A stretch of DNA of 34,532 nucleotides from an uncultured Synergistales bacterium. GTDB lineage: Bacteria; Synergistota; Synergistia; Synergistales; Aminobacteriaceae. The stretch is taken from positions 1 through 34,532 of the forward strand of contig CALCQG010000057.1 of NCBI GenBank assembly GCA_937897575.1. The letters are read 5' to 3'. This document shows, piece after piece, positions 1,220-33,953 of this stretch. The notes beneath the pieces were generated by a model, which was given only the letters and a program-made list of their open reading frames with translations, did no database searches and was not told the origin of the DNA. The stretch's first letter is position 1, and each line of letters starts with the position of its first letter. The position numbers and the translations under genes are program-made.

Positions 1220-2896
1220 TCAACCAACCCTTTCTATCGCCGCAGTCAGGCCGATCTGCATCATGTCCTCCACAATGCGCCGAAAGACGGGGGCCGCCAC
1301 GACTCCGCCGTAGTACTTGCCCTTCGAGGGCTCGCCGATAACGACGAGCAGGACGTACTGCGCCTTCTCGACGGGCCAGAAGCCTCCGAAGGAGGCGACC
1401 CACTTCCCCTTCATATACTCACCGCGCTCGGCGACCTGGGCGGTCCCCGTCTTCGCCGCGAGTTCGATACCCGGGATATCCGCCGAGCGCCCCGTCCCCT
1501 TGCGAACGACATCCCGAAGGGACGACCGGAGCCATTGAGCCGTCTCCCGGGAGAGAACCTCCCGAAGCATATGCCGTCCTCCCGCATAGAGGACGTCGCC
1601 TCCTCCGTCCCGGACCTCCGATACGATGAAGGGGCGAAGGAGATCGCCTCCGTTCGCTATGGCCCCGATCGCCGACGCCAGGTGCAGAGGGGTCACCGCC
1701 AACCCCTGGCCAATGGCGATGTTCGAGGGGACGACGCCCCGCCACTGCTCGGGCGTCGCAAGGAGGCCGCTCTCCATCCCGTTGAGCTCGATCTCCACCG
1801 TTTTTCCGAATCCCCACTCCCGCAGGCCGCTGTACATATCGGCCGCCTTCACTCGCAGCCCGATCTGCGCCATGCCCGTGTTGGAGGATTTCACCAGAAT
1901 TTCGGGCACGCTGAGCTTTCCGTACCCTCTGTTCTCCGCCTCGGAGACGTGACCGTCGGCCACCTTGATACGGTAGGGGCAGTTGAACACCTCGTTCTTG
2001 CCAATGGATCCCCGTTCGAGGGCGACACCGAGGATCACGGGTTTGAAAGTGGAACCCGGCTCATAGGTCCGGCCGATGGAGTTGTTGACGATCTTTTTGA
2101 GGTTAGCAAGCTCTTTCCTGTCGTTGGGGTCGAAGGAGGGCCAGCTCGCCATGGCAAGGACGGCCCCGCTGTTCGGATCGAGACAGACGATACTGCCCCA
2201 CTTCGCTCCGTGCTCCGCGATGCCCTCGTTCAATCGCCGTTCCACGATGAACTGAATGCGCGAGTCGACGGTCAGGTTCACCGAGCCGATCCCACCGCCC
2301 GCGCTTTCGGAGAACGCCGTCACGTCCAGGGTCTTTCCCGAGGACTCCTTCGCCAGCACCCGGACACCCGGTGGGGAGTACAAGACCCTGTCCCATACCA
2401 ACTCGATCCCGGACAGCCCTTTGTCATCCACATCACAGAAACCGATGACATGGGCCAGAAGCGACTTGTTCGGATAGAGCCTCTTTTTCTCGTGGAGTTC
2501 GTAGATGCCCTTGAGACCGAGGGACCGTATCGCCTCGGCCGTCTTTTGGTCCGTCTTTCGCGCCAGCCAGGTGAATCGTCCCTTGAGCTGGGACGACACG
2601 GAGCGTACCGTATCCTGGGGAAGGATCCCCGCGAGCTTCTGGCCGTTGGCGGGATCCCAGAAGGCGGGGTCGATGAAGAAACTTGAGGCTGGAACGGAGA
2701 GAGCCAGGGCGTTGCCGTTCTTGTCGTAGATGACGCCCCGATTCGTGCTCACGGGGACGTGATTCCAGTATTGGCGCTGGGACTGCCGCTGCACTCTGGG
2801 GTCGGGGAGAAGCTGTAACGACGCGACTCGCCAAGCGAGCACGCCGAAACAGGCGAAAACAAGAATCCAGTGGAATCCCCCGAAGCGCTTGAACAT
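1220..2896 (-). CDS. ftsI: Class B penicillin-binding protein (FtsI/SpoVD family transpeptidase), 558 aa
   Basis: N-terminal TM segment; RGVIYDKNG and RLYP motifs; active-site motifs EPGSTFK (SxxK), KSSN (SxN), KTGT; dcw position between ftsL and murE. Confidence 0.9.
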   Translation of the reverse strand: MFKRFGGFHWILVFACFGVLAWRVASLQLLPDPRVQRQSQRQYWNHVPVSTNRGVIYDKNGNALALSVPASSFFIDPAFWDPANGQKLAGILPQDTVRSVSSQLKGRFTWLARKTDQKTAEAIRSLGLKGIYELHEKKRLYPNKSLLAHVIGFCDVDDKGLSGIELVWDRVLYSPPGVRVLAKESSGKTLDVTAFSESAGGGIGSVNLTVDSRIQFIVERRLNEGIAEHGAKWGSIVCLDPNSGAVLAMASWPSFDPNDRKELANLKKIVNNSIGRTYEPGSTFKPVILGVALERGSIGKNEVFNCPYRIKVADGHVSEAENRGYGKLSVPEILVKSSNTGMAQIGLRVKAADMYSGLREWGFGKTVEIELNGMESGLLATPEQWRGVVPSNIAIGQGLAVTPLHLASAIGAIANGGDLLRPFIVSEVRDGGGDVLYAGGRHMLREVLSRETAQWLRSSLRDVVRKGTGRSADIPGIELAAKTGTAQVAERGEYMKGKWVASFGGFWPVEKAQYVLLVVIGEPSKGKYYGGVVAAPVFRRIVEDMMQIGLTAAIERVG

Positions 2897-2930
2897 GCGA
2901 CCTTCCCCCTGTTATGGTCTCCCGCGCGGA

Positions 2931-3347
2931 TTAATTCCGTGCCGACGCTCTCTCGAGGAAGAAGTAGAACCACCCCTCCCTTCCTCCTTCGTCCGCACTG
3001 CCGGAAAGGGAGGAGTCAGGCGCCGAGGCAAGGAGCGCCCCGTCCACCCGCAGCACTTTGACGTCGGCGGCGTAGGTCATCCCGAGCTGATCCTTCGAAA
3101 AGGCGTACACCCGCCCGGGGGAGAGGACAGCGGACAGCTCCTGCCGCAGCGTGATCTCCTGGGCTCTGAAGGATTCTATCTGACTGTTGATGCCGTTCAA
3201 CCGGCACTCCAGCCGGAAACTGTACAACCTGAGGACCCCCAAGCCCATGAAGGCGATGAATCCGAGGATGACGCACAGGGCGGCGTAGGGCCACACCTTC
3301 CTGAAAGGAAGAGAAGAAAGGGCCTGGACATTCATCTGACTCTCCAT
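2931..3347 (-). CDS. ftsL: FtsL-like cell division protein (single TM plus coiled coil); start may be ATG at 3335
   Basis: One hydrophobic helix followed by a heptad-rich segment. Occupies the canonical slot between rsmH and ftsI, so the assignment is mainly syntenic. Confidence 0.6.
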   Translation of the reverse strand: MESQMNVQALSSLPFRKVWPYAALCVILGFIAFMGLGVLRLYSFRLECRLNGINSQIESFRAQEITLRQELSAVLSPGRVYAFSKDQLGMTYAADVKVLRVDGALLASAPDSSLSGSADEGGREGWFYFFLERASARN

Positions 3348-4261
3348 CTTCGCTCGTTGCCTCCTTCGCGGCTGCCGCCCACGGAAAAAATTCTCAATTT
3401 CGCGCTTCGCGCCTTATGGTTCCGCACTGTCTCCTCGTCCGACGGAGTTATCGGCCGTCTGGTCCGGACCGTCCCGAGCTCCGCTTGCTGCCACTCCCTG
3501 AAGAGATGCTTCACGATCCGGTCCTCCAGCGAGTGGTAGCTAACCGCCAGAATCGACCCTCCGTCGCGACAGAGGGCTTTCGCCCCCCTCAACCCGAGCG
3601 TCAGAGCCTCCAGTTCGTCGTTCACCGCAATCCGCAGCGCCTGGAAAACCCGCCTCGCCGGGTGCCCCCCCATCTTTCTCTGAACCGGGGCAGGGAGCGT
3701 CGAACGAATGATCTCCACCAGCGTGGAAGTCCTGTCGATCCGCCCACTCCTCTGTCTGAAGCGGACGATCCCTCGCGCGATGGGGCGCGAAAACCGCTCT
3801 TCGCCGTACTTCCAGAAGATATCGGCCAGATCTTTCTCGGAGCCCTCGTTGACAAGGTCTGCGGCGGTCAGCGGCGACGAGGCGTCCATTCTCATATCCA
3901 GCGGGCCGTCCTCCTGGAAGGAGAACCCCCGTTCACCGCTCGTCAGCTGAAGGTTCGACACGCCCAGATCGAAGAGTATCGCATCGAAAGGGGCTTCGTC
4001 TCCCACCAGGGCGTCCATGGCGGAAAAATTGCCGTGGACCGGATGAAACCGATCGCCGTAGCCCGACGCTCTCTCTGCGGCGATGGCGAGGGCTTCGGAG
4101 TCCTGATCGATCCCCCAGACCTGCGCACCGGGAAAGGTCTCGAGAATCGCCACCGTATATCCGCCAAGGCCGAGAGTACAGTCAAGAACTCGTTCCAAAC
4201 TATTTTCACGGTCCGAAAGAGCGCGAAGAATTTCATCGAGCAGGACGGGAACGTGTTCCAT
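3332..4261 (-). CDS. rsmH: 16S rRNA m4C1402 methyltransferase RsmH (MraW)
   Basis: Motifs HVPVLLDE, DCTLGLGGY, FDLGVS, RGFSFQEDGPLDMRMD, FQALRIAVNDEL, SYHSLEDRIVK, RSAKLR. The ATG overlaps the mraZ stop (TGATG). Confidence 0.96.
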   Translation of the reverse strand: MEHVPVLLDEILRALSDRENSLERVLDCTLGLGGYTVAILETFPGAQVWGIDQDSEALAIAAERASGYGDRFHPVHGNFSAMDALVGDEAPFDAILFDLGVSNLQLTSGERGFSFQEDGPLDMRMDASSPLTAADLVNEGSEKDLADIFWKYGEERFSRPIARGIVRFRQRSGRIDRTSTLVEIIRSTLPAPVQRKMGGHPARRVFQALRIAVNDELEALTLGLRGAKALCRDGGSILAVSYHSLEDRIVKHLFREWQQAELGTVRTRRPITPSDEETVRNHKARSAKLRIFSVGGSREGGNERRWRVR

Positions 4262-4686
4262 CAAAACCCGTCCACACCCTCGGCTATCTCTGGAAGCTCG
4301 TCAAGGATTTGATTCCTGTACTCATCCCACTTCGCCTTGTCCCATAGCTCCACATGGTCGTTCACGCCGACGAACACCACGTCCTGTTCAAGCATGCCGT
4401 GCTGACGCAACACCGACGGGACGAGGATCCGGCCGGCCGAATCGATCTGAAGCTCGTGGGCGCTCGAGAGCATCACGCGGAGAAAACCGCGCGCCTTTCC
4501 CTTGGAAAAGGGAAGCTCCTGGAGTTTGTCCAGGACCTTCTCCCACCCCGCAAGGGAGTATAATGAGATGCACTGGTCGATGCCGATGGTGGACACTACG
4601 GTCTCTCCAAGCTCGTCTCTGAACTTGGAAGGAAGCACGATTCTGGCTTTTGAATCGATCTTGTGCTCGTAGGTCCCAACCAGCAT
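4261..4686 (-). CDS. mraZ: Division/cell-wall cluster transcriptional regulator MraZ
   Basis: MLVGTYEHKIDSKARIVLPSKFR and IDSAGRILVP (two DxxxR-like SpoVT/AbrB repeats), ELWD; SD GGAGG before ATG at 4684-4686. Confidence 0.95.
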   Translation of the reverse strand: MLVGTYEHKIDSKARIVLPSKFRDELGETVVSTIGIDQCISLYSLAGWEKVLDKLQELPFSKGKARGFLRVMLSSAHELQIDSAGRILVPSVLRQHGMLEQDVVFVGVNDHVELWDKAKWDEYRNQILDELPEIAEGVDGF

Positions 4687-4695
4687 GGGATTTCC

Positions 4696-4739
4696 TCCCA
4701 CTTTCTAACATTATTTCCCACTTGCTCCCACACTACCAC
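4696..4739 (-). promoter_or_regulatory. Probable MraZ-binding repeats
   Basis: GTGGGA at 4696-4701, 4716-4721 and 4726-4731 (10/20-bp phasing) plus GTGGTA at 4734-4739, immediately upstream of mraZ. Resembles known GTGG/TGGG MraZ boxes. Confidence 0.6.
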
Positions 4740-4753
4740 CTTGCATAAAATAG

Positions 4754-4808
4754 AAATAGGTCTGCAGACTCATAAAAAAAGAACGAGAGTGAGTCTGCAG
4801 ACCTATTT
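4754..4808. repeat. Perfect 19-bp inverted repeat (possible rnpB terminator or insulator)
   Basis: AAATAGGTCTGCAGACTCA (4754-4772) and TGAGTCTGCAGACCTATTT (4790-4808), located just 3' of rnpB. Confidence 0.7.
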
Positions 4809-4825
4809 GTGTTCACCGAAAGAGC

Positions 4826-5162
4826 AAGGGAGTATCCTGTAAGCCGGGTTCTGTCAATGGATGGCCATTTATCTGAAAAACGCCTTACGACGTTCTTTAC
4901 GCGACCGTACCCGAGGGTCGGCGGGCAGCGTCATCCCCTCCTATTCGGTCTTGCTCCGGACGGGGTTTGCCTGGCATGGAGATCACTCTCCACCCGGTGG
5001 GCTCTTACCCCACCTTTTCACCCTTACCTGCAAGCAGGCGGTATGTTTCTGTGGCACTTTCCTTTGGCTCGCGCCAACTGGGCGTTACCCAGCGTCCTGC
5101 CCTGCGGAGCCCGGACTTTCCTCTCCTCCTGAGACGAAGAGCGGCCATCAAGGATACTCCCC
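4826..5162 (-). ncRNA. rnpB: RNase P RNA (bacterial type A)
   Basis: Conserved GAGGAAAGTCCGGGCTC near the 5' end and ACAGAACCCGGCTTA near the 3' end; P1 helix GGGAGTATCCT / AGGATACTCCC (4828-4838 pairs with 5151-5161). Confidence 0.96.
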
Positions 5163-5167
5163 GCGCG

Positions 5168-5176
5168 ATTATACCA
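5168..5176 (-). promoter_or_regulatory. Extended -10 promoter of rnpB
   Basis: TGGTATAAT (TGnTATAAT) about 6 nt upstream of the rnpB 5' end. Confidence 0.7.
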
Positions 5177-5200
5177 CGGCACCTTCTCTAGTGTCGCCGC

Positions 5201-5233
5201 AAAAAAATCTCCGGAGTGGAAACACTCCGGAGA
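5201..5233 (-). terminator. Rho-independent terminator of the V-ATPase operon
   Basis: 11-bp stem TCTCCGGAGTG/CACTCCGGAGA, 4-nt loop, then 7 T on the minus strand, 22 nt after the subunit D stop. Confidence 0.88.
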
Positions 5234-5255
5234 CTGAGACGAACTTCTGGTGAGG

Positions 5256-16662: not shown

Positions 16663-18489
16663 CTATGGAGTTGTCACCATATCTGCCTTTATCAGTTTAA
16701 CACCATTGATAGTCACCAAACAGGAAAAGACACTACTCTTTTCGTTTCCGAAATAGTCTATCCTTTTGGAACTCGCTGAAACAAACACCTGTTTTCGTGC
16801 TCGCGTTATTCCTACATAGAACACTGACAACTCATCTAAAGCGATATCCCGAAAACCCGATGACAGAGGAATTGGTAAAGAACAGCAACAATTAGTAGTA
16901 GAGGCGAATTTATTAGGGCAATCGTTACAGGTATAGTATCCGGGGAATACCCATCGTTCCACATCCGCGAGTACAACATAGTCCCACTCAAGCCCTTTCG
17001 CTCCGTGGACGGTAGAGAGTATAATTTGCGAATCCACATACTCCATAGCTTGTTTCAATTGGCGGTTCTCAAAAATATCCAAGAGCAGATTGTACTTATC
17101 CTCGGACAAGAGATCTGAGTAATCGATTGATACTTTTTCGACAAGAGCATCAAGCAAACGGAGCAATGAGTCAATTGTTTTGCCTGTCGCTGCATCATAT
17201 GCTTTTTTGACGTTGTCGGAGAAAGAAATCAAAGCTTTCTTGTTGATGCTTTTTGACTTCCCGAACCGCTTTATAAACATCTCTTGGCATTTGTTGTGAA
17301 ATTCTACATACTCGGCATCTTCGTCAGTGAACATACCGTAGAAGTACGCCACCTTTTTATCGGTAAGTTCTGCTTCTACTATTTCGGCATTCTTCCCTCG
17401 ACCCCTGAAAAGAATAGCAATTTTGTCTATCCCGTCACCCATCAGAGTCTGGACTTTAGCAACAACCTGCTGCGCTTCATCTTGCTGGGTTGTTCCCCAA
17501 ATGGCAGGTAACTTCGCCACATCATCCTCTAAGACGGTTGTAGAGAAACAAGACGCAGCGTTCTCTCTGATGATTTTATCCAGCTTTAGCATTTCGGGAT
17601 TGTTACGAAATCGATAATTCTTTGACAGAGTAACTTTAGACATTCCGTATTTGTCAACAACCATTGTCATTATATCAGGTAACGCTCCAATGAATCCGTA
17701 AATCCTTTGCAGCGGATCGCCAAGAAAAACAAGCTGTGTCTGTTCAACTATAATTGTCTCAAGCAATTTCCAGGCAATGCAGTTTGTGTCCTGAAACTCA
17801 TCGACAACAATAAGAGGGTAATAGCTCTGGTAGAATCTTTTGACCTCGGGAAACCGGTCGAACATCTCCAAAACGAACAAGATTACAGCATTATGAGTGA
17901 TATACTCCAGCGGCAGCAACTTCTTGATAACAATCTCGTTATAGGCGTGGATTGTCTGTGCGTCTGGAACCCGAGCCTCTTTGACTGCGGTTTCCACGGC
18001 TTTGAGTTTTTCAAGTTCATCTGATGAAAGAGCCGTTTTTAGGCTCGACTGTCTTTCAATATCGCTATCACCAACGGCTCGAAAAAGATTGACATCCTTA
18101 CGCAAGCCATCAGCAATGAGATACCCATACTTTTTAAGAACACCTTTGCAGAATCCGTGGTAGTTCGTGACGGTTACTTTTTCACCTAAGGCAACAGGGC
18201 TGTTCTGTGAACCGAGCAGAACAGGCAATTTTTCAGCGACTTCGCGTTTGACTTTCAGCGCAGCGTTTACGCTAAATGTGAGACCAAGGATGCGCTTAGG
18301 ATTTGGTATGCCTCCCGAAGCAAATAAATAGGCAATGCGACTAATCATCGTCGTGGTTTTTCCATATCCGGCAGGAGCTTCAACAATCAGTCGCAGACTA
18401 TCTGAAAAAATTACTTCAAGTTGTTTCTCATCACCTTCGTGTTGGACAGAGATTTTCTCTTTTATTTCAGCGAGAGTAGCGTTAGTCAT
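16663..18489 (-). CDS. gajB: UvrD/Rep-family SF1 helicase, Gabija GajB-like, 608 aa
   Basis: APAGYGKT (Walker A), LTFS, VVDEFQD (Walker B), GDPLQRIYGF, NYR, STVHGAKGLEWD, FYVGITRAR; start overlaps the upstream OLD nuclease. Confidence 0.75.
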   Translation of the reverse strand: MTNATLAEIKEKISVQHEGDEKQLEVIFSDSLRLIVEAPAGYGKTTTMISRIAYLFASGGIPNPKRILGLTFSVNAALKVKREVAEKLPVLLGSQNSPVALGEKVTVTNYHGFCKGVLKKYGYLIADGLRKDVNLFRAVGDSDIERQSSLKTALSSDELEKLKAVETAVKEARVPDAQTIHAYNEIVIKKLLPLEYITHNAVILFVLEMFDRFPEVKRFYQSYYPLIVVDEFQDTNCIAWKLLETIIVEQTQLVFLGDPLQRIYGFIGALPDIMTMVVDKYGMSKVTLSKNYRFRNNPEMLKLDKIIRENAASCFSTTVLEDDVAKLPAIWGTTQQDEAQQVVAKVQTLMGDGIDKIAILFRGRGKNAEIVEAELTDKKVAYFYGMFTDEDAEYVEFHNKCQEMFIKRFGKSKSINKKALISFSDNVKKAYDAATGKTIDSLLRLLDALVEKVSIDYSDLLSEDKYNLLLDIFENRQLKQAMEYVDSQIILSTVHGAKGLEWDYVVLADVERWVFPGYYTCNDCPNKFASTTNCCCSLPIPLSSGFRDIALDELSVFYVGITRARKQVFVSASSKRIDYFGNEKSSVFSCLVTINGVKLIKADMVTTP

Positions 18490-20233
18490 TGGTCGCCACC
18501 TCCTGCGCTTTCTTTATAGCATCGCTATAGCAAGTGGGTATAAATTCGGTGGGTAACGATTCACCAACAATGCGTCCAAGGAGGACGCCTTTTTTTGCCA
18601 TAAACCACGCTGAGTACATCTGACAGAATTCAGTTTCATCGGTGTCACTTACATCAGATAACTTCTTAGGTGTGTAGCCGTTGATATCTATGCCCATCTT
18701 CTTGAAATGCTTCCGGACGAAATCCACGTCCAAAGCTACTGACTCGGCTTTACGGTCTAAATCCAGCGCGATCTTACGAACGACTGAAGTCTTATCGTTT
18801 GTAAATAGCGTTTTGACTACTTCAATCTCGAAACATAATTCTTTTGTAAAAAACTCATCGTCATTAGCAGTCTGACCAGCTTTAACATCCCCATCATAAA
18901 TGGCAATGCTTGGAACGGCAAATAGCCTAAGCAACTGGCGAAGCGGTTTAATAGAACCCTCACCCCTTGCATTTATCACGCAAATACCATAATCATCCAA
19001 ATCAATGCCTATCTTATCGGAAAAAGCGTGAATACAGCCGTATTCCGTCTCGCCTTCAATCAAGATGGCGCTTTTGGCATAAAACGCCTCCTTGATTTCT
19101 GGGAAGTGCATAATGAGGTGTTTTTCATCCTCGGTTTTAATACGCCCATCGTTATTAGTGTGTTCAATCGGACGCAAATCATATCCACTGATTACCGATG
19201 TCTTATCTCCGTTCTTATAGAAACGGATAAGGTTGCGATAATCCCCAACCAATGCGTCCGTCGAGTGCGTGACAATAATCAACTGTCCGTCGATACCGTC
19301 AATACCGAAGCAAGTATTCAATAGGTCGGCAAACTCAGAGTCCTCGTTACACAGTATTCGCTTGTAGTAACCGATAAGTGACCTTTGCAAATATGGGTGT
19401 AGGTGGACTTCCGGCTCATCAATCGCCAGCACGAGTGGCAAAAGTTTTTTACCTTTGTCGTCGGTGTATAGCTGCTCCTCGAACGGAGCGGACTTGCTTT
19501 TGTATAACTCCATTATCTGGCACAGAATATTTATTGAAGCCATCGTCATATACTGGACGCCGCTTCCTGTGGTTTCAATTTTTCTGTCGCCATCAGAAAG
19601 GTAAAAAAGGCTTGTTAGCATTTCCGTAGGGTTCGGAGCGATAGTCGCCTCTATCGCATAGTCACGGAAACTTCGAATTTTGCCAAGGTGACTATTAATA
19701 AACTCCCTTAGACTATCTACTTGAGTGTCATTCAAAAACGATGGAACACTATCACCAATAAACCTTTCAATGATTCCGTTAATGAGGAGTCCGGCTCCCT
19801 TTTGGGTATCAAGACGCAACTCCCTACTCGGCATAGACGTAGTCTCATATTTCAAGAAATTAATCTTTCTGATGAGCCTCGTCTGTATACTCTCATTTGA
19901 GTCTGCACTGACAATTGTAGGATAGGCTTCCTTAATGGTCTGATGATAACGAATCTTCAACAGTGAAGCATCATCCGGTGAAAAGTTGTCACCGAAAAAA
20001 CCCTGTTCATTGGGGAGCAGTCTGATATCTAGTTCGACCTCGATAGCTTTTTCAGGGTCAGAAAAATCCTTTTCGTCAAATCCCTTGCCATTACACACAG
20101 TACCAAGAAGCGACAGAAAGTTGCTCTTACCCAGATTGTTTTCTCCAATGATATAATTGCAACCCGGATTAAAACAAACATCTATCCCGTCGATATTTCT
20201 GTAGTTAGAAACCTTAATATTAGAAATCCTCAT
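18482..20233 (-). CDS. gajA: OLD-family ATP-dependent endonuclease (ABC ATPase + TOPRIM), Gabija GajA-like, 583 aa
   Basis: MRISNIKVSNYRNI start with SD GGAGG; GENNLGKS (Walker A), IDEPEVHLHP (Walker B), VTHS (H-loop), TOPRIM IEGETE and YDGD. Confidence 0.78.
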   Translation of the reverse strand: MRISNIKVSNYRNIDGIDVCFNPGCNYIIGENNLGKSNFLSLLGTVCNGKGFDEKDFSDPEKAIEVELDIRLLPNEQGFFGDNFSPDDASLLKIRYHQTIKEAYPTIVSADSNESIQTRLIRKINFLKYETTSMPSRELRLDTQKGAGLLINGIIERFIGDSVPSFLNDTQVDSLREFINSHLGKIRSFRDYAIEATIAPNPTEMLTSLFYLSDGDRKIETTGSGVQYMTMASINILCQIMELYKSKSAPFEEQLYTDDKGKKLLPLVLAIDEPEVHLHPYLQRSLIGYYKRILCNEDSEFADLLNTCFGIDGIDGQLIIVTHSTDALVGDYRNLIRFYKNGDKTSVISGYDLRPIEHTNNDGRIKTEDEKHLIMHFPEIKEAFYAKSAILIEGETEYGCIHAFSDKIGIDLDDYGICVINARGEGSIKPLRQLLRLFAVPSIAIYDGDVKAGQTANDDEFFTKELCFEIEVVKTLFTNDKTSVVRKIALDLDRKAESVALDVDFVRKHFKKMGIDINGYTPKKLSDVSDTDETEFCQMYSAWFMAKKGVLLGRIVGESLPTEFIPTCYSDAIKKAQEVATND

Positions 20234-20425
20234 AAACCCTCCCGCGAAGTGTGTGCTCCGCCCTCCTTCGCTAAACCAGAGATCAAACATTCGTAGAGTC
20301 AGGAAGTTCCTGTAAACTGCTCGTACGGTCATTATTCCAAGACATCCCAACCCAGCTGTCCGAAAGTTTAACCCATAAACTGGTTTAGGTTATTGCAAAG
20401 CATAACCATCGCCCTCCGTTTATTT

Positions 20426-22489
20426 TCACTCCACATCCTGCAGTCTGAACGCCTGCTCAATAACCTCCATCACGTCGTCGAGCATATCCAAGCTGTCCAG
20501 ACCGATCTCGACATCGCCGTTGCCCCATCTGCCGACACCCGTGATGTCTTTGCAAATGCCTTTCGGGTCGATGACGTCGGCGAACTTCATATTGATGGCC
20601 AAGCGGAGCCGCGAGTTCTGGATAACAACATCCACGAAGTTGGTGTCGGCCTTGTAGGCGATATACAGCTTTTTAAACTCACGCTTCACATAGGTGCCGA
20701 GGTTAAGGATTCGGGTGTTCAGCTTCTCAAAGAGCATACGGTTGAAAGCGTTCAGATACTGATAGCTTTCAAGGTTATACTCCGGCGCGATGTCGTCCTG
20801 TTTGCGGTACGGCGCGAGTTCGGCTTCTGTAAGCGTCGGGTACGGCCACGCCTTTTTCGCCACCTCCCCAAGCTGGGCTGCGCGTTCATTGACCTGCGGC
20901 TCGCCCCAAGTGATCTGGGTAACAACATACTTATTCAAACGAAGCGCACTCTGCTGGAAACCGCCGTCCATTGTCAGCTTGTCGGCGAACGGCGAATCGC
21001 TCATCTCAGAGTTATAAGCCGTCAACGTCAGGTTGCCGATAGTATGCAAGTACTTCTTTTGAATCTCCTCCCAGTCGCTTCCGAGGGTGGATACCCAGTC
21101 GGCGGAGAGGTGCGGGTTCTGCGGGATGATGTGTTCAATGGTCAGCTTTTCCGCATTGACTGCCGACTTGTTGTCCCAGTTTTCAAGTCTCCCAAGGATA
21201 TAACCGCAGCGGTTCATATGGTAGATGTCCCTCGTCAGGAAGGTATCGAGGAATCGCTTGTCGTTCGGGAACTCCTTGTAGGAGTCGAGCAAGATAAAGA
21301 ACGCCTTTACCGAGTTCAGATAGTCGAACTGTCTGATGTCATTCTTCATTGTGGCGAAAGTCTTGTTCAGGGAGTTCGTCGGAATGTCGCAGACGGCGCG
21401 GCGCAGTACGTAGCTTACGCAGAGCCGCAGGATTTCCCGCAGTTCCTCGATGGTTATCAAGTCCTTGTCGCAATCGTCGTGCACTTTCAGAAGAAACGGG
21501 TAAGCGACCTCCATGCGAATTGCCTTCATATCGCCGTAGAGCGATTTCAACACGGCGTCGCCGCTCCGCACAAAATACATGTCGGAATAGTGCTTGGCGA
21601 AGCTGTAGATGTCTTGACATAGGTCGCGAATGGTTAGTCCACTACCGTTGTGGTAAGCGCGGAACTCTTTGTAGACCTCGTTTTTGCGAGGAATCCTGCC
21701 CAGCTTCATCGTGAGGTAGTCACGGAAGAAGTTGTCCAGCAACTCGCTTTGATGCTCGTAGTCAAAGAGTAGTTCCGTTGGCCGCCAGATGTTGTTGTAA
21801 ACATCCGTCTGGGTCGCAGAGTCCAAACCCATCAATAGATGATTGCGGATGAGGTCTGAGTCCTTCAAGTCCATACCTGTGGAGTTGAGACTCTCGAAAA
21901 TCGCCTGCGGGTCATCATACTGGCGGTCGAGGACGATGTCCACGATTTGCAGTTTTCCGATGGCGTCGTAAAGATCGGATGGTGCAATCTCGCCCTTTCC
22001 AATTTGCCCTGAGAAGAAGCCGTAGTTGTCCAGCACTCGAGATTTCAAGGTGTCGGAAATTGGCGCACCCTCAATCTTCTTTATCAGCGCGTCCCTGTCG
22101 GACTGCGTAAGGAGCAGTTTGTATTTGGCATTTCCCGTTTCATATTGGTTCAAGAGCAGCGTGTCGGTTATCTTGTTCGGGTTCACACCACAGTCTGAAT
22201 GAGTCGCCGCATAGTCGCGCAGGGCGACGAGAAGAAGAGTCAGCGTGGTAAGCCTCTGCTGACCGTCGATAATCATTGCAAGGGTAGACCCCGCCGCGGA
22301 ATCCTCGTCAATGCGGACAATCGATCCGACGAAGTGACCCTCCCTTTGCGTAGTGTGGAGGTTTACGATGTCGCTCCAAAGACGGGCGCACTGCTCACGC
22401 TCCCAACTGTATGTTCTCTGATACAGCGGTATTCGGTATTGACAGGTCCCGCCGAGGTATTTGTAGATATTGCTCTTGAAAGCGTTCAT
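20426..22489 (-). CDS. GmrSD-like DUF262 + DUF1524 (HNH) modification-dependent nuclease with C-terminal DUF5655-like domain, 687 aa
   Basis: IPLYQRTYSW, IIDGQQRLTT, IFESLNSTG (DUF262); TIEHIIPQN...IGNLTLTAYNSEMS (HNH); tail FKKLYIAYKADTNFVDV...GRWGNGDVE. Confidence 0.85.
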   Translation of the reverse strand: MNAFKSNIYKYLGGTCQYRIPLYQRTYSWEREQCARLWSDIVNLHTTQREGHFVGSIVRIDEDSAAGSTLAMIIDGQQRLTTLTLLLVALRDYAATHSDCGVNPNKITDTLLLNQYETGNAKYKLLLTQSDRDALIKKIEGAPISDTLKSRVLDNYGFFSGQIGKGEIAPSDLYDAIGKLQIVDIVLDRQYDDPQAIFESLNSTGMDLKDSDLIRNHLLMGLDSATQTDVYNNIWRPTELLFDYEHQSELLDNFFRDYLTMKLGRIPRKNEVYKEFRAYHNGSGLTIRDLCQDIYSFAKHYSDMYFVRSGDAVLKSLYGDMKAIRMEVAYPFLLKVHDDCDKDLITIEELREILRLCVSYVLRRAVCDIPTNSLNKTFATMKNDIRQFDYLNSVKAFFILLDSYKEFPNDKRFLDTFLTRDIYHMNRCGYILGRLENWDNKSAVNAEKLTIEHIIPQNPHLSADWVSTLGSDWEEIQKKYLHTIGNLTLTAYNSEMSDSPFADKLTMDGGFQQSALRLNKYVVTQITWGEPQVNERAAQLGEVAKKAWPYPTLTEAELAPYRKQDDIAPEYNLESYQYLNAFNRMLFEKLNTRILNLGTYVKREFKKLYIAYKADTNFVDVVIQNSRLRLAINMKFADVIDPKGICKDITGVGRWGNGDVEIGLDSLDMLDDVMEVIEQAFRLQDVE

Positions 22490-25584: not shown

Positions 25585-25615
25585 AGGGTGTACCTCCTCC
25601 TGTATCTATATCTGG

Positions 25616-26305
25616 GTGCCCGAAGGCAGTAAATTAAACAATCATTTAGAGCAGATGGCTCACGCTATTTTCAAGTCGTGGTTCGTAGACTTCGAGCCAT
25701 TTGGCGGGGAGCAACCCACAAACTGGACAACTGGAAACCTACTCGACATCGCCGATTACCTCAACGGGCTTGCAATGCAGCGTTTTCGTCCTATTGATGA
25801 TGAAGTTGGGCTTCCCGTCCTCAAAATCAAGGAACTGCGGCAAGGTTTCTGCGATTCATCGAGCGAACTTTGCTCACCCAACATTCGCTCTGATTATATC
25901 GTTCATGACGGCGATGTAATCTTTTCATGGTCTGGAAGCCTACTTGTTGACTTCTGGTGTGGCGGCGACTGCGGTTTGAATCAGCACCTTTTTAAAGTCA
26001 CCTCCACGAGATACGACAAATGGTTCTACTACGGCTGGACTCGTCATCACCTTGCCCAGTTTGTGACTATGGCGGCTGATAAAGCAACGACGATGGGTCA
26101 CATCAAACGTGAAGCCTTGGCAAACGCCGAAGTTCTAATCCCTGACGAGGACGGCTACCGAGAACTCGGTAGTCTGCTTGCTCCGATGTATGAGCAGGCG
26201 GTCGCATGTCGAGTCGAGAGCCGACATCTAGCTCTTCTACGTGATTCCTTGCTTCCGCGCCTTATGTCGGGTGAACTAACGGTGTCGGAGGTGCCTTATG
26301 AATAA
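25616..26305 (+). CDS. hsdS: Silent C-terminal half of hsdS (central conserved region + TRD2a + C-terminal conserved region), invertible cassette
   Basis: Homology begins at the repeat core (NNHLEQMAHAIFKSWFVDFEPFG) and ends RDSLLPRLMSGEL. No N-terminal TRD and no convincing SD; inverted relative to hsdM/hsdR. Confidence 0.85.
   Translation: MPEGSKLNNHLEQMAHAIFKSWFVDFEPFGGEQPTNWTTGNLLDIADYLNGLAMQRFRPIDDEVGLPVLKIKELRQGFCDSSSELCSPNIRSDYIVHDGDVIFSWSGSLLVDFWCGGDCGLNQHLFKVTSTRYDKWFYYGWTRHHLAQFVTMAADKATTMGHIKREALANAEVLIPDEDGYRELGSLLAPMYEQAVACRVESRHLALLRDSLLPRLMSGELTVSEVPYE
25635..25649 (+). repeat. hsdS recombination core A (TAAACAATCATTTAG)
   Basis: Exact 15-mer; extends as a 70-bp inverted repeat (6 mismatches) with 28711-28780. 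Confidence 0.9.
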
Positions 26306-26513
26306 AACCCTGAAAGTTCCATTTGATGCACCGCTTAACGAGTTGGACTCCGAAGTTCAGACTTTCGGTTGCCGTCAGAAGAATCCCGATATCTGCGGCA
26401 ACAACTCACTGCCCGACGTTTGCGCTTTTGCCACTGACGACTGTATTTGCCGTAAGCCGTCGAGGGCGTGGAAGCGACAGTATGAAATTCTCAAGGTTCA
26501 AGCCGCTAAATGA
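26298..26513 (+). CDS. Hypothetical 71-aa Cys-rich protein on the TRD2a cassette
   Basis: SD GGAGGTG; start overlaps the hsdS-half stop; five Cys (C-x7-C-x8-C-x6-C-x-C); stop codon lies inside core B. Confidence 0.7.
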   Translation: MNKTLKVPFDAPLNELDSEVQTFGCRQKNPDICGNNSLPDVCAFATDDCICRKPSRAWKRQYEILKVQAAK

Positions 26514-26520
26514 TTGTTTA
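26506..26520 (-). repeat. hsdS recombination core B
   Basis: CTAAATGATTGTTTA is the reverse complement of the core. Confidence 0.9.
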
Positions 26521-26576
26521 ACCGCGCCTCCTGCCACTGTTAGAACACATTTTTAACCGAAAGGCAGGAGGAACAT

Positions 26577-27569
26577 ATGAAAGATAAGATAATTACAGAG
26601 ATTCAGACAAGCATGGCGTCGGTGCTTAATCCGGCGCAACAGGAGGAATTACGGCGGGTACTGATGTACCACCTCCACAACGTGGAAGTCACGGAGCGCA
26701 AAGCCCCTAACCCACAGGAAACCGCCGAGAACGGAGGGTTGCTCGAAGTGTTTATAGCCGCAAAGAGAGTAGAAGGCTGCTCGGAGAAGTCGCTGAAATA
26801 CTACGACTCAACCATACGGCAGATGACCGACAACGTAAAGAAACCCGTGCGGGAAATCATCACCGACGACCTGCGGATTTACCTTGCCGACTACCAGAAA
26901 GAGCGCGGGTCCAGCAAGGTCACGATAGACAATATACGGCGTATCTTCAGCAGCTTCTTCGGGTGGCTTGAGGATGAAGATTACATCATAAAAAGTCCCG
27001 TCCGCCGAATCCACAAGATTAAAGCGGACAAAACCATCAAGGAGACATTCTCCGACGAGGGCTTGGAACTGCTCCGCGACGCTTGCGAGGAAGTCCGCGA
27101 CTTGGCGATGATTGACCTGCTCGCTTCAACGGGAATGCGCGTCGGAGAATTGGTTGGCTTAAACCGTGAAGACATCAATTTCCATGAACGAGAGTGCGTG
27201 GTGTTCGGCAAGGGTAGCACAGAGCGTCTGGTCTACTTTGACGCTCGAACAAAAATTCACTTGAGGAACTACCTTGACGGCAGAAAAGACGCCAATCCCG
27301 CTCTGTTCGTGTCGTTGACACTGCCCCGAGAGCGGCTGATGATAGGCGGCGTGGAAACGAGGCTGCGGGAAATCGGAAAGCGAGCCGATATGCAAAAGGT
27401 ACATCCGCATAAATTTCGGCGGACGCTTGCAACGCGAGCCATTGATAAGGGAATGCCCATTGAACAAGTACAACGGTTACTTGGTCATGTAAAGATAGAT
27501 ACGACCATGTCCTATGCGATGGTCAATCAGACAAATGTGAAGAACTCGCATAGGAAATTCATCGGATAA
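26577..27569 (+). CDS. Tyrosine recombinase (XerC/D-like with N-terminal SAM-like domain), putative hsdS shufflase, 330 aa
   Basis: Catalytic residues in GMRVGEL (R), GKG (K), HKFRRT (HxxR), LLGH (H) and TTMSYA (Y); embedded among the hsdS halves. Confidence 0.92.
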   Translation: MKDKIITEIQTSMASVLNPAQQEELRRVLMYHLHNVEVTERKAPNPQETAENGGLLEVFIAAKRVEGCSEKSLKYYDSTIRQMTDNVKKPVREIITDDLRIYLADYQKERGSSKVTIDNIRRIFSSFFGWLEDEDYIIKSPVRRIHKIKADKTIKETFSDEGLELLRDACEEVRDLAMIDLLASTGMRVGELVGLNREDINFHERECVVFGKGSTERLVYFDARTKIHLRNYLDGRKDANPALFVSLTLPRERLMIGGVETRLREIGKRADMQKVHPHKFRRTLATRAIDKGMPIEQVQRLLGHVKIDTTMSYAMVNQTNVKNSHRKFIG

Positions 27570-27582
27570 GGAGGGGCGGAAA

Positions 27583-28197
27583 ATGCCTCAAGGTTGGACG
27601 CCTACACGTATAGGCAACATATGTAAGACAAATCATCGCACCTATTCGATAGCGGAGAAGTGGCCGTTCGTTAATTACTTAGATACGGGAAACATTACGG
27701 AAAACCGCGTGGGTGATATACAGCACATCGTTATTGGGCAGGATATCCTCCCAAGCAGGGCGCGGCGTAAGGTCGCCGTGGATGACATCATCTACTCAAC
27801 TGTTCGACCAAATCAACGGCATTACGGCATCGTGAGGGATGTTTTACCGAACATGCTCGTGTCCACGGGCTTTACGGTTATCACGGTTGATAAGGAGAAA
27901 GCCGACAGTGACTTCCTCTACTACTATCTGACCCAGAGCGAAATCGTGGATAGCTTACACGCCATCGGCGAGCAGAGCGTTTCTGCGTATCCGTCAATCA
28001 AGCCCTCTGACATTGAGCGCGTCGAGTTAGATTTGCCGCCGCTCCCAGAGCAAGTTGAAATCGGTCGCACCCTTCGGGCGTTGGACGACAAAATCGCAAA
28101 CAACACGAGGATAAACAATCATTTAGCATCGCCGAGATCAGCTACGGATAGCTCGCCGGACATCAGGCGGGGTAACAAGGAATCGCGGGCGGCTTGA
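27583..28197 (+). CDS. hsdS: N-terminal half of hsdS (TRD1b) with its own start; currently truncated at core C with a 23-aa antisense-derived tail
   Basis: SD GGAGGGG and ATG; TRD motifs PSRARRKV..DDIIYSTVRPNQRHYG, STGF, LPPLPEQVEI...LDDKIANNTRINNHL, then non-HsdS sequence. Confidence 0.85.
   Translation: MPQGWTPTRIGNICKTNHRTYSIAEKWPFVNYLDTGNITENRVGDIQHIVIGQDILPSRARRKVAVDDIIYSTVRPNQRHYGIVRDVLPNMLVSTGFTVITVDKEKADSDFLYYYLTQSEIVDSLHAIGEQSVSAYPSIKPSDIERVELDLPPLPEQVEIGRTLRALDDKIANNTRINNHLASPRSATDSSPDIRRGNKESRAA
28112..28126 (+). repeat. hsdS recombination core C
   Basis: Exact TAAACAATCATTTAG; supplies the AK-stop of the expressed hsdS on the minus strand. Confidence 0.9.
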
Positions 28198-29261
28198 AGA
28201 TTACAGCTTTCCGCATAGTTCGCTTCGATGGCTGCGTCCATCGGATTAACCAGTTCCCCAAACTGACGGAGTACGTCGTCAGTTGGGATAAGCACAGGGA
28301 GGTTTGCCATATCGTTCTTATTGATAGAGCCAAACACTGTGCCTTCGCCGTTGAACATATCAAGTGTTTGTTTCAAAGCGAACATCGTGTAGAGGACAAA
28401 GGACTGACCGTCATTGTTGCTTTGGATGCCCGCCAAGCCGCGACCGAGGCAACAAGACTCGAAGGCGATGTTCAAGTCCCCGACAGGAGCGCGAACGCTC
28501 ATAAGCACATCGCCTTTTGTCGCCATACGTTTGGGTTGGGTGGTGAACAGGCGACGGGTGGGAAACCGAGAACCAAACTCGGCACGACCTTGATAAAAGA
28601 CAGTCCCGATGCCGTCTTCGTTGTAACTCGAACCGTCGGGAGATTGCCCCATAGTGATGGTAGCTATCTCGCTGAGTGTACCTTCCCGCCAATCGTCAGG
28701 CATTACGGCTCCGAATGGCTCGAAGTCCACGAACCACGATTTGAAAATGGCCTGCGCCATCTGCTCTAAATGATTGTTTATCGCTCTGTTTTCAGCAATC
28801 CGAGCGTCCAGAGCGGCCAGCGTGTCAGCAATCCCAATCTGTATGTCAAGCGGTAGGTCGGGGACTTCATACCGCATTATCGCACCTTTGTCGCCTCTCG
28901 GCATCTTCGTTCCCTTCGCCGTAGCTGTGGCGTAGTCAAAGAAGGTGTTATCCGAGAGCAGGTAATAGAGAAAGTTCGGATAGACATTCTCCTTCGCCCG
29001 AAACACCAGCACATCATTAGAGCACCCGCCGTCACGGTCGGCATACCAAATTTTCCTGAAGTAAGGACGTATATTGGAGACCAACACGTCCTCCGCTTGG
29101 TAGGCTTGCGTCTGGTTGACGGTCGGCAGTCCCGCCGAGCGCGTTATACCCTCCTTGTTCTGGAGCATATTCTCCGTGGAGATATAGTTGTTCAAGTCCA
29201 AGTCGGCGACAGCGATCCGTCCATCGGCGAAAGTGCAAATGTCAGAGAGTTTAAATGTCAT
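28119..29261 (-). CDS. hsdS: Type I R-M specificity subunit (currently assembled TRD1a + TRD2b), 380 aa
   Basis: Two TRDs joined by LDARIAENRAINNHLEQMAQAIFKSWFVDFEPFG, ending RDSLLPRLMSGEL; ATG overlaps the end of hsdM. Confidence 0.93.
   Translation of the reverse strand: MTFKLSDICTFADGRIAVADLDLNNYISTENMLQNKEGITRSAGLPTVNQTQAYQAEDVLVSNIRPYFRKIWYADRDGGCSNDVLVFRAKENVYPNFLYYLLSDNTFFDYATATAKGTKMPRGDKGAIMRYEVPDLPLDIQIGIADTLAALDARIAENRAINNHLEQMAQAIFKSWFVDFEPFGAVMPDDWREGTLSEIATITMGQSPDGSSYNEDGIGTVFYQGRAEFGSRFPTRRLFTTQPKRMATKGDVLMSVRAPVGDLNIAFESCCLGRGLAGIQSNNDGQSFVLYTMFALKQTLDMFNGEGTVFGSINKNDMANLPVLIPTDDVLRQFGELVNPMDAAIEANYAESCNLQAARDSLLPRLMSGELSVADLGDAK
28766..28780 (-). repeat. hsdS recombination core D
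   Basis: CTAAATGATTGTTTA inside the central conserved region of the expressed hsdS. Confidence 0.9.
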
Positions 29262-30753: not shown

Positions 30754-30963
30754 TTATTGTTCCTCCTTCACTGTCTCAAACAAGTCCTCAACCTTACAGT
30801 CGAGCACCGCTGCAATCTTCATCAGCACATCCATTCGCACCGGTTCGTTTTTACTGAGCTTAGCGATAGTGTTTGAACTGATTTCAGCAGCTTCTCTGAG
30901 ATCAACCTTTTTCATGTTTTTATCGATGAGTATTTTCCAGAGTTTATTATATTGGATTCTCAT
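30754..30963 (-). CDS. Cro/C1-type (XRE) helix-turn-helix regulator, 69 aa
   Basis: MRIQYNKLWKILIDKNMKKVDLREAAEISSNTIAKLSKNEPVRMDVLMKIAAVLDC; directly upstream of hsdM. Confidence 0.85.
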   Translation of the reverse strand: MRIQYNKLWKILIDKNMKKVDLREAAEISSNTIAKLSKNEPVRMDVLMKIAAVLDCKVEDLFETVKEEQ

Positions 30964-31520
30964 TTTGCAGTATCCTTTCTGCCCCATTTTCGCCCGAACA
31001 GCGCTTGTTCATCAGCATCCAATTTCAGTACAGTGTTTTCTCTAATGATGGACTGTGCCATTTTGTCATATTTGCTCGCCCTGTCGAAGGCTATAAATAT
31101 TTGCTTCTGTTTTTCTCGCGCATACAAAGCCAAGATTTGTCCTATGGTATCATCGGAGACATTAGCAAACAGAAGGGAGTCATGCGCCAACGCAGGGAGC
31201 GCCGTACTATTAAGGATACTGATATCGTATATCAGCATTCCTTTGAAATTCGTACCTGTTCCAGTATCCTTTGGTGTTTCAAAGGAGTAGCTGTTATATT
31301 CCTTGATTCCTAAAACAGGTGGATTATCTTTCCCTTGAGAGACGTAATCACTGATCTCACTCATATGGCGATTAATTGTAGTTTCTATGACTTTTAATAC
31401 TGTTTCCATCTGCAACCTGAGCCTATCACTTGCTTGTTTTTTCTCATTTTGCAATGTGTTACGAGTGTCGAAAGCTTCATTTTCATCTTCTAATTTATGA
31501 ATCCGGCGGTCAAGATGTGA
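30960..31520 (-). pseudogene. 5'-truncated DUF2326-type ABC/SMC ATPase (ABC three-component / Lamassu LmuB-like), C-terminal part only
   Basis: End of coiled coil (HLDRRIHKLEDENEAFDTRNTLQNEKKQ), then DTGTGTNFKGMLIYD, LAHDSLLF, KQIFIAFD, LFGRKW. No Walker A half; the frame is closed upstream by TAA at 31527-31529. Confidence 0.65.
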
Positions 31521-31966: not shown

Positions 31967-32398
31967 ATGAGCCATATACCATTTGGCTACCGTATTGAAA
32001 ACGGAAAAGCCGTAATTGATAAAGAGGCTGCAGAACAGATTAAAACATTATTTCAATCTTACCTGAGCGGCGATTCCTTGGCTACGGCCGCAAAGAAAGC
32101 AGGTATTAAAGCTTTCCATTCCGGTATCGGAAGAATGCTACGAAATACCCGATACCTCGGTGATGAGTTTTATCCGCCGATTATTGACAAAGACACTTTC
32201 AATACTGCCGAAGCAGAACGAATTATGCGGGCGGAAAGACTCGGCCGTACCAAAAAGTTTATACAAGAAAAAGAGGTCGTTTATCCTACCATCTTTCGCA
32301 TGAAAGAAGGAACAGAGGAACTCGACGACCCCTTCGGGCAGGCGGAATACGCCTACAGTTTAATTGAAATGGAGGTGAACAAGAATGGCAGTCAGTAA
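31967..32398 (+). CDS. Small recombinase-domain protein (middle gene of the triple serine-recombinase module), 143 aa
   Basis: [11 protein letters not shown]...[20 protein letters not shown]...[19 protein letters not shown] is a recombinase DNA-binding domain without a catalytic domain. Confidence 0.8.
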
Positions 32399-33953
32399 AA
32401 ATGTCACCGTGATTCCGGCAAGGAAGCATACTCGCAAGAGCAAGGACGAGGAAAAACCGAAACTACGCGTTGCTGCTTACTGCCGTGTTTCCACAGACAG
32501 CGAGGAGCAGGCTACCAGCTATGACACACAGATTGAGCATTACACCGCCTACATACAAGGGCACCCCGACTGGATGCTGGCGGGGATTTTTGCGGACGAC
32601 GGTATTTCCGGTACCAATACTAAGAAGCGTGAAGAATTCAACCGCATGATTGACGAGTGTATGGCCGGTAATATCGATATGATCATCACAAAGTCCATTA
32701 GCCGCTTTGCCCGAAACACACTGGACTGTTTGAAGTATATCCGCCAACTAAAGGACAAGAACATTCCGGTCTATTTTGAGAAGGAAAACATAAACACCAT
32801 GGATTCCAAGGGCGAGGTTATGCTCACAATTATGGCATCCCTTGCACAACAGGAAAGCCAGTCCTTAAGTCAGAATGTGAAACTGGGTTTGCAGTATCGT
32901 TACCAACAAGGTGAAATACAAGTCAACTGCGCACGGTTCCTCGGTTATACCAAGGATGAGAATAAGCGCCTTGTGGTTGTACCCGAAGAAGCCGAAATCG
33001 TAAAGCGCATCTATCGCGAATACCTTGAGGGTGCCAGTATGCTGAAGATTGCCCGTGGGTTAGAAGCCGACGGTATCCTGAACGGTGCAGGCAATGAGCG
33101 CTGGCACACCAGTAACATTAACAACATTCTACGAAATGAAAAGTACATCGGAGATGCGCTCTTGCAGAAAACCTATACGGTTGATTTTCTTACAAAGAAG
33201 CGGGTCAAGAACAACGGTATCGTTCCGCAGTACTATGTAGAAAACAGCCATGAAGCCATCATCCCGCGTGAAGTTTTCATGCAGGTACAGGAAGAGCTTA
33301 TCCGCCGCCGTATTGTGCACACAAGCCCAAACGGAAAGACCAGAACCTTCAGCAGCAACCACGTGTTTGCTCAGATAATCATCTGCGGCAAATGCGGTGA
33401 GGTTTTTCGCAGGGTGCATTGGAACAACAGAGGTAAGAAGTCCATCGTCTGGCGCTGTGTCAGCCGGTTAGAAAACACCGGCCTATTCTGCGATGCCCGC
33501 ACGGTACTGGAGAGCACCATCGAGCAAGTGCTTGTTACCGCTATCAATCAGACGCTCTGCGACAAGGACTCTTTCCTTATTACTCTGCGGGACAACATCG
33601 CAACCGTCATAAATCGTGAAAGCGACAAGGCCTTGTCGGATATTGATAAGCGGCTTGAAGAACTGCAAACGGAGCTTTTGAAACTGGCCACCTCCAACGC
33701 GGATTACGAAAAAGTAGGCGATGAGATTCACCGTCTGCGTGACCAAAAGCAAAAGCTGCTTCTTGAAAGCGCTAACCGTGACGAGCTCAAAAAGCGGATT
33801 GCTGATATGAGCACATTTCTAAAGAAGCAATCCACCGCCCTCACCGAATATGATGAGCAACTTATCCGACGGCTGATTGAAAATGTCATCATCTATGAGG
33901 ACAAATTTACCGTGGAATTTAAATCGGGCTTGACGGTTGATGTGGAAGAATAG
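32385..33953 (+). CDS. Large serine recombinase (resolvase + recombinase + zinc ribbon + coiled coil), 522 aa
   Basis: [13 protein letters not shown] (catalytic Ser), [33 protein letters not shown]...WRC; SD GGAGGTG. Confidence 0.94.

Follow-up and report, generated by a model that had tools for sequence, protein, structure and literature searches.

A 34,532-nucleotide (nt) contig of an uncultured Synergistales bacterium (CALCQG010000057.1, assembly GCA_937897575.1; hereafter the window) carries a type I restriction-modification (RM) locus in which a tyrosine recombinase gene, two N-terminal and two C-terminal halves of the specificity gene hsdS and four copies of one short repeat lie between hsdM and hsdR. 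Each half encodes a target recognition domain (TRD), and the halves are referred to as TRD1a, TRD1b, TRD2a and TRD2b, while the repeats are referred to as cores A to D. Very probably, this locus is a four-site hsdS switch of the SsuCC20p type described from Streptococcus suis, which holds one complete hsdS, and the arrangement found in the window is likely an intermediate between the normal states. The locus rearranges, as near-identical copies in other metagenomes hold A-D and B-C inversions, and among related loci the two places at which a complete hsdS can stand are coupled rather than independent.

Four identical cores and four open hsdS joins

The 15-mer TAAACAATCATTTAG occurs exactly at all four cores, with strands alternating + - + - (Table 1), and no further match was found elsewhere in the window when up to two mismatches were allowed. 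Dinucleotide shuffles of the sequence at the same tolerance (n = 100) gave a mean of 0.07 matches and none of the 100 reached four, which excludes a chance origin, and the whole genome contains one additional near-match, on contig C113. A preliminary description of this DNA had placed the cores and genes in this way and had proposed an hsdS shufflon that is associated with a recombinase and able to form four alleles; both points are borne out, as all four TRD1-core-TRD2 joins are open frames (383, 380, 399 and 396 amino acids (aa)) and A-D and B-C joints occur in near-identical loci. The two TRD1 and the two TRD2 are distinct, given identities of 28% between TRD1a and TRD1b and 36% between TRD2a and TRD2b, and the four alleles, if expressed, would presumably differ in methylation motif. 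The core encodes N-N-H-L within the linker between TRDs, and its reverse strand provides the stop codons for hsdS and for a 71-aa open reading frame (ORF). In the complete gene, core D splits TRD2b (28119-28765) from TRD1a (28781-29261), and the start overlaps the end of hsdM; TRD1b passes core C into a short tail that ends at 28197. The recombinase retains R188, K212, H278, R281, H304 and Y313 at the motif positions, which we take to be the catalytic residues, and most likely exchanges strands at the cores.

Table 1. Features of the hsdS locus and its surroundings, in window coordinates
Feature	Position	Strand	Remarks
GajB, GajA (Gabija) and GmrSD-family nuclease	16663..22489	-	PADLOC GajB 1.9e-221, GajA 3.3e-212; Pfam GmrSD_N/C
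hsdR, type I restriction subunit, 1026 aa	22504..25584	-	Pfam HSDR_N, SWI2_SNF2, T1RH-like_C; TIGR00348; PADLOC REase_I 1.9e-296
Core A	25635..25649	+	non-coding hsdR-side end joined to TRD2a start; altered joints in X2, X7
TRD2a, silent hsdS C-terminal half, no TRD1 in front in window state	25650..26305	+	Pfam Methylase_S
71-aa Cys-rich ORF accompanying TRD2a	26298..26513	+	stop codon inside core B
Core B	26506..26520	-	recombinase-upstream end joined to segment 1 tail; B-C joint in X12
Predicted hairpin CCTCCTGCC/GGCAGGAGG over recombinase Shine-Dalgarno sequence	26527..26571	+	fold -23.6 kcal/mol, z -4.2
Tyrosine recombinase, XerD-like, 330 aa	26577..27569	+	Pfam Phage_integrase and Phage_int_SAM_4; NF040815 above cut-off
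TRD1b, second N-terminal half	27583..28111	+	own ATG and AGGAGG-like Shine-Dalgarno sequence
Core C	28112..28126	+	TRD1b end joined to antisense TRD2b tail; reverse strand contains hsdS stop codon
Complete hsdS TRD1a-TRD2b, 380 aa	28119..29261	-	Pfam Methylase_S (2 stretches); PADLOC Specificity_I; PDB 5ybb, 3okg E 1e-44
Core D	28766..28780	-	TRD1a end joined to TRD2b start; A-D joints in X7, X2
hsdM, 500 aa	29251..30753	-	Pfam N6_Mtase and HsdM_N; PADLOC MTase_I
Large serine recombinase genes, other side of island	31967..33953	+	Pfam Resolvase, Recombinase, Zn_ribbon_recom

Arrangements open to the locus

To enumerate the possible states, each core was given a two-letter code, the first letter for its upstream side (T for a TRD1 end, N for a non-coding end) and the second for its downstream side (S where a TRD2 starts, E for the tail of a segment). 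In this code the window is NS, NE, TE, TS; 16 linear arrangements are possible, in addition to eight that bear a circle. The eight in which the recombinase lies opposite to hsdM, as in the window, each contain exactly one complete hsdS, while the eight co-oriented ones comprise four one-gene, two two-gene and two zero-gene states. The usual layout of the family is hsdM-TRD1-x-int-TRD1'-y-hsdR, all forward, with one TRD2 forward and the other backward, so that the complete hsdS follows either hsdM or the recombinase. The window has the rarer layout, in which the recombinase-TRD1b segment is inverted, all four sites are intact and the complete gene is 1a-2b; judged from the sequence, an hsdS at the second site in this orientation would lie antisense to hsdM. 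Starting from the window, inversion between A and B alters no allele, inversion between C and D puts TRD2b behind TRD1b, and inversion between A and D or between B and C leads to a co-oriented one-gene state; an all-forward operon with two hsdS is two steps away.

Rearranged copies in other metagenomes

Twenty-three metagenome runs (X1-X23) were listed, of which 19 contained the stretch and none was RNA, and the assembled contigs of six runs from six studies (X1, X2, X3, X7, X9 and X12) were compared with the window. Joints were accepted at 98% likeness only, those seen at 90% alone were not counted, and the low-share runs X16-X23 were taken as no evidence. This revealed the window arrangement, unbroken over the cores at depth 9-16, in X1 and X3, which come from two studies. 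In X7, a 2898-nt contig joins 25634 to 28780 and continues through core C, as produced by A-D inversion, and the same inversion is seen from its other end in X2, where TRD1a is joined to TRD2a (25660 to 28756) at depth 60. An 8334-nt contig of X12 joins 26520 to 28111 at depth 92, as produced by B-C inversion. The recombinase is thus inverted in the window, X1 and X3, and co-oriented in X2, X7 and X12. Contigs of X9, of which 43% was read, stop at all four cores, and contigs of X2 stop exactly at both edges of core B; we infer that these stops mark branching into alternative joints. Three arrangements were found among the six runs, of which five were resolved, and each resolved state has one complete hsdS.

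The preliminary description had also proposed A-B and C-D inversions alongside A-D and B-C. Only the latter two were encountered, as the contig pieces listed for the six runs contain no joint, at 98% likeness, that cleanly marks a single A-B or C-D inversion. Two candidate joints at 90% likeness were dropped: one in X2 (25629-28112, depth 3.3) was absent at 98%, and one in X3 (28110-28783) had the same depth as a further skip and likely derives from a related organism. Single-nucleotide differences are clustered at 26810-26870 and 27636-27669, where the window differs and X1, X2, X7 and X12 agree together; those in the recombinase are silent apart from N86S and I95V.

These comparisons also bear on whether the locus is a frozen relic, a copy that has stopped switching and in which sites and recombinase survive as remnants. 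In favour of this, alternative joints are absent from X1 and X3 at depth 9-16, the layout of the sequence separates the inverted recombinase from read-through out of hsdM, and the same genome holds a decayed second locus on C113. However, the reading frame of the recombinase and the residues of its catalytic motif are preserved, none of the four cores deviates and near-identical copies are rearranged, making a relic very improbable.

One complete hsdS in most related loci

Relatives of the recombinase numbered 585 in about one third of the GTDB scan and 594 in 1/16 of the metagenome scan. The survey set was formed from the best 80 of each scan and seven plasmid-collection regions, giving 168 sequences including the window (locus labels beginning with L). 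A core follows TRD1 in 139 of the 168, and 88 have four alternating cores. Following removal of three loci with unclassifiable segments (L003, L087, L099), ten with a truncated outer end and two with two T outer ends, 68 co-oriented and five inverted loci, the window among them, were tallied. Exactly one complete hsdS was found in 63 of the 68 co-oriented relatives, after hsdM in 34 and after the recombinase in 29. Counted by recombinase clusters at 95%, one-gene loci exceed exceptions by 52 to 5 (binomial P 8e-14 against 50:50, a value inflated by kinship). Five complete plasmids display both one-gene layouts. When orientation is judged from the direction of hsdM/hsdR, co-orientation is found in 65 loci and inversion in 14. 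Of 138 related loci, 42 terminate no more than 120 nt from a core.

The two independent expression sites of the preliminary description are therefore to be revised in part: a second site stands, since hsdS following the recombinase is expressed in the homologous S. suis locus (Roodsant et al. 2024, PMC10790761), while independence does not fit a family in which 63 of 68 co-oriented loci have one gene. The zero- and two-gene states that it had expected, including the all-forward operon, are rare or artefactual, the two-hsdS operon being at best a rare state; among the tallied loci they are seen in the five remaining co-oriented ones, and the orientation seen in the window always gives one hsdS.

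The relatives come from Bacillota, Treponema and Bacteroidota records and from plasmids, far outside the streptococci; among phage records, recombinase matches above 60% were all unannotated. No core was found by the scan in L166 (Methanosphaera) or L167. Other layouts, with more than four cores or with the recombinase outside the TRD array, occur in L074, L032, L016 and L027. The conserved unit of the core is the 14-mer TAAA-N6-TTTA, whereas the last G of the 15-mer is variable (present at 84 of 114 start ends and 100 of 114 tail ends). The TAAA and TTTA arms are near-constant and the spacer varies from locus to locus, giving 14 core variants, while cores within one locus agree to at most one mismatch, which is the limit of the scan. 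Tyrosine recombinases obey a spacer-homology rule, which this within-locus agreement fits. The bases after the core at tail ends are also conserved (GCGGCTTA) and place a stop two codons beyond the core. In most relatives an uncoupled TRD1 stops two codons past the core; core C of the window is instead open for 23 codons.

Comparison with known systems

SsuCC20p, whose inversions were first noted by Willemse & Schultsz 2016 (PMC5198162), comprises hsdM, hsdR, four TRDs and xerD, with both TRD2 flanked by TAAATCATCATTTA; its shuffling is xerD-dependent, and the hsdS downstream of xerD is transcribed and methylates (PMC10790761). By sequence comparison, the window locus belongs to this kind. The two share hsdM, hsdR and two TRD1 and two TRD2 around a central tyrosine recombinase, one identical 14-bp TAAA-N6-TTTA inverted repeat (IR) flanking both TRD2 (TAAATCATCATTTA versus TAAACAATCATTTA, 12/14), four alleles, possible hsdS positions after hsdM or xerD with one complete hsdS, a mobile region and alternative arrangements with one complete hsdS each, here between samples. 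Reading of Table S1 of that report further suggests that TRD1a shares long motifs with SsuCC20p TRD1, and from resemblance alone TRD1a is predicted to recognise GAC as SsuCC20p TRD1 does. The window recombinase is 75% identical over 330 aa to XerD of S. porci (NZ_AUIP01000006.1, L012), itself 93.6% identical to that of SsuCC20p in Table S3, and 75% is below the 90% cut-off used in PMC10790761 for SsuCC20p itself. The window locus differs in its spacer (CAATCA versus TCATCA), in its TRD1b and TRD2 sequences, in the 71-aa ORF of segment 1, in lying within a defence island (Gabija, GmrSD) rather than a prophage, in its 62% GC host from fermentation, bioreactor and sludge metagenomes, and in its inverted recombinase segment with intact sites, the S. 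suis segment being co-oriented according to the text of the report. Membership was retained because recombinase orientation is a state of the locus and not a defining part. The layout and the expressed post-recombinase hsdS were thus already published for SsuCC20p (PMC10790761), and the novelty that the preliminary description had seen in the two-site layout falls away.

Lactococcus megaplasmids pMPJM1 and pMPJM2, where a 'type I RM shufflon' is named in passing (PMC6458302), have a recombinase with 75% identity, the same four-site layout and the SsuCC20p IR, and one-gene states are seen in four complete plasmids; unlike the window, these loci are plasmid-borne and all co-oriented. The SpnIV/tvr locus of S. 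pneumoniae, for which an excision-reintegration model and a hairpin limiting the recombinase have been described (PMC6265443), is similar in its order hsdM-TRD-recombinase-TRD-hsdR, in placing hsdS on either side of the recombinase and in having an RNA hairpin on the recombinase. However, tvr repeats are all direct and of two types, while the window cores alternate; tvr has a tvrAT toxin-antitoxin pair, and none lies between the window cores; tvr tolerates two complete hsdS; and its hairpin is a transcription attenuator, compared to the predicted stem in the window that hides the Shine-Dalgarno (SD) sequence. Tyrosine-invertase shuffling of TRDs between hsdS copies is shared with SpnIII/ivr (cod) and with epigenetic invertons (Huang et al. 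2020, PMC7672463). Those systems rely on several different IR pairs and express one hsdS only, next to hsdM, whereas the window has one core in four copies and a second TRD1 equipped with a start and SD of its own. Unstable single-inversion intermediates have been described for a BREX locus (PMC9881135). The accessible parts of PMC7672463 and PMC13076061 add no mechanism for the SsuCC20p type, and a literature search, with subscription papers outside its coverage, returned no description of an inverted recombinase together with intact sites, nor of an SD hairpin. These two features, the second of them predicted and family-wide, are what the present analysis adds.

A predicted hairpin over the recombinase start

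SD pairing is predicted at 63 of 73 recombinase starts, compared to 14 of 43 for hsdR and 5 of 38 for hsdM (P 5e-16, one locus per cluster). A hand-set stem pairs in 84.6% of cells, versus 39-55% once it is slid, and two-sided stem changes did not exceed those in shuffles, so that pairing is conserved while covariation is not supported. On 12 close relatives, RNAalifold gave a weak stem of six pairs, and on 38 upstream regions no consensus structure. In the larger gut clade, the stem is GTCGTTCTC with GGAGA..GAC, often with a second GC-rich hairpin upstream. The hairpin is thus predicted to hide the recombinase SD across the family (L001-L165) and, lying over the ribosome-binding site, would hold recombinase output low.

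A proposed route between one-gene states

We propose that recombination at the cores would channel the population into one-gene states. The window state is one inversion away from the X7/X2 state and one from an X12-type state, and, being one inversion from both normal states, it is what would be expected midway through a nested double inversion by which TRD1a exchanges its TRD2; this route would run through A-D and then B-C inversion by way of the inverted-recombinase state. Transfer of the complete gene to the post-recombinase site would likely involve a paired exchange or, as in tvr, excision between the members of one direct pair followed by reintegration at the second. All one-gene states observed would be connected if reaction were limited to sites with a flank type in common, be it a TRD1 end, a non-coding end, a TRD2 start or a TRD2 tail. 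The flank consensus of the relatives gave no clear base rule dividing allowed from disallowed pairs, and a rule against 'diagonal' pairs therefore remains descriptive. Selection against zero- and two-gene cells may be another source of the one-gene rule. A more specific version, in which the window is the inverted-recombinase intermediate, ordered single inversions occur at same-flank pairs and never at the two diagonal pairs, and the hairpin and core stop tie recombinase output to arrangement so that the locus has a built-in counter for one gene, is speculative and, in our estimation, doubtful.

Several observations speak against a one-gene switch with the window as an intermediate. Five of the 68 co-oriented loci are exceptions, with two complete hsdS in L104, L108 and L156 and none in L125 and L154; the truncated L142 and L151 and the three-site L053 are probably more zero- or two-gene cases, and L087, excluded as unclassifiable, appeared to have two genes. 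In the metagenomes, arrangements differ between samples, as seen in assembled contigs, and not within one clone, so that runs with differing arrangements may represent different strains or hosts; X2 and X7, both 2019 bioreactor runs, may belong to one campaign, and X12, whose TRD2 upstream of the recombinase is a different one, is a variant locus. The assembled contigs of the six runs showed neither a circle nor a clean excision joint, and no promoter stands out for the inverted recombinase segment (6 hits versus 5.4 expected). The lack of an inverted-recombinase state in S. suis fits paired exchange better than free single inversions.

The exceptional loci would be expected if the locus were a free combinatorial shufflon, in which inverted pairs recombine alike, the two sites switch independently and the presence of zero, one or two complete genes is an ordinary outcome. 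Identical cores permit every pair by sequence, and the unrelated pneumococcal tvr shows '2+2' states with two complete hsdS (PMC6265443). Free recombination would nevertheless make half of the co-oriented loci zero- or two-gene, far from the proportion found. All five exceptions are unphased metagenome contigs, in which short reads are unable to phase the 1.6-kb middle segment, and there are none among the 34 GTDB and complete-plasmid loci. In S. suis, no zero- or two-gene state is reported from 22 assemblies, long reads or polymerase chain reaction (PMC10790761). A free shufflon is accordingly improbable.

Alternatively, the locus may undergo only paired exchanges or excision-reintegration, the window layout being a rare dead end or a chimera of two normal states. 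The SsuCC20p authors sought an inverted xerD without finding it, called the mechanism unknown and proposed coordinated double recombination, and the IRs had been lost from five S. agalactiae strains in which xerD was inverted (PMC10790761). Each window joint is present in the normal states of X7 and, for the shared parts, X12, and co-oriented loci outnumber inverted ones by 65:14, although free access would favour inverted ones by 8:4. Against this, X1 and X3 show the inverted layout without a break at the cores, which a mixture of two states would not give; the four sites are intact in the window, and inverted layouts occur in 13 other loci. Taken together, we consider this alternative unlikely, though well short of negligible, and favour the SsuCC20p-type switch with the window as a likely intermediate.

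Genomic surroundings

The Gabija and GmrSD genes follow immediately downstream of hsdR, share its strand and belong to the same low-GC island (43-52% versus 62% for the genome), while the large serine recombinases on its other side likely serve island mobility and are not the shuffling enzyme. The locus is present in none of 40 relatives of the host, four of which have short matches only. Directly upstream of hsdM are a DUF2326 fragment (30960-31454) and a small Cro/C1-type helix-turn-helix gene (30754-30987), and the latter may regulate the operon. No Rfam match was found in the locus, and promoter and terminator scans of it gave chance-level results. The 71-aa ORF had no match in Pfam, NCBIfam or PADLOC, and its Atlas clusters are all unnamed, one having 1624 members; homologues (56-69%) occur in eight GTDB loci among those listed, and in five of these the ORF comes right behind a 2a-like TRD2. 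The second, decayed locus of the same genome (C113, ~1986-5254) has an hsdR with 79% identity, a core with the SsuCC20p spacer (TCATCA) and the same leader hairpin; its recombinase gene is cut after ~10 codons and joined to the hsdR upstream region, and the contig ends in a TRD2 start.

Implications

The S. suis work left open how four identical sites yield only one-gene states, and the window locus and its rearranged copies offer a testable route. The one-gene rule and the predicted SD-hiding hairpin reach far beyond the streptococci. For the host, the switch likely provides a changeable anti-phage specificity within a Gabija and GmrSD defence island.

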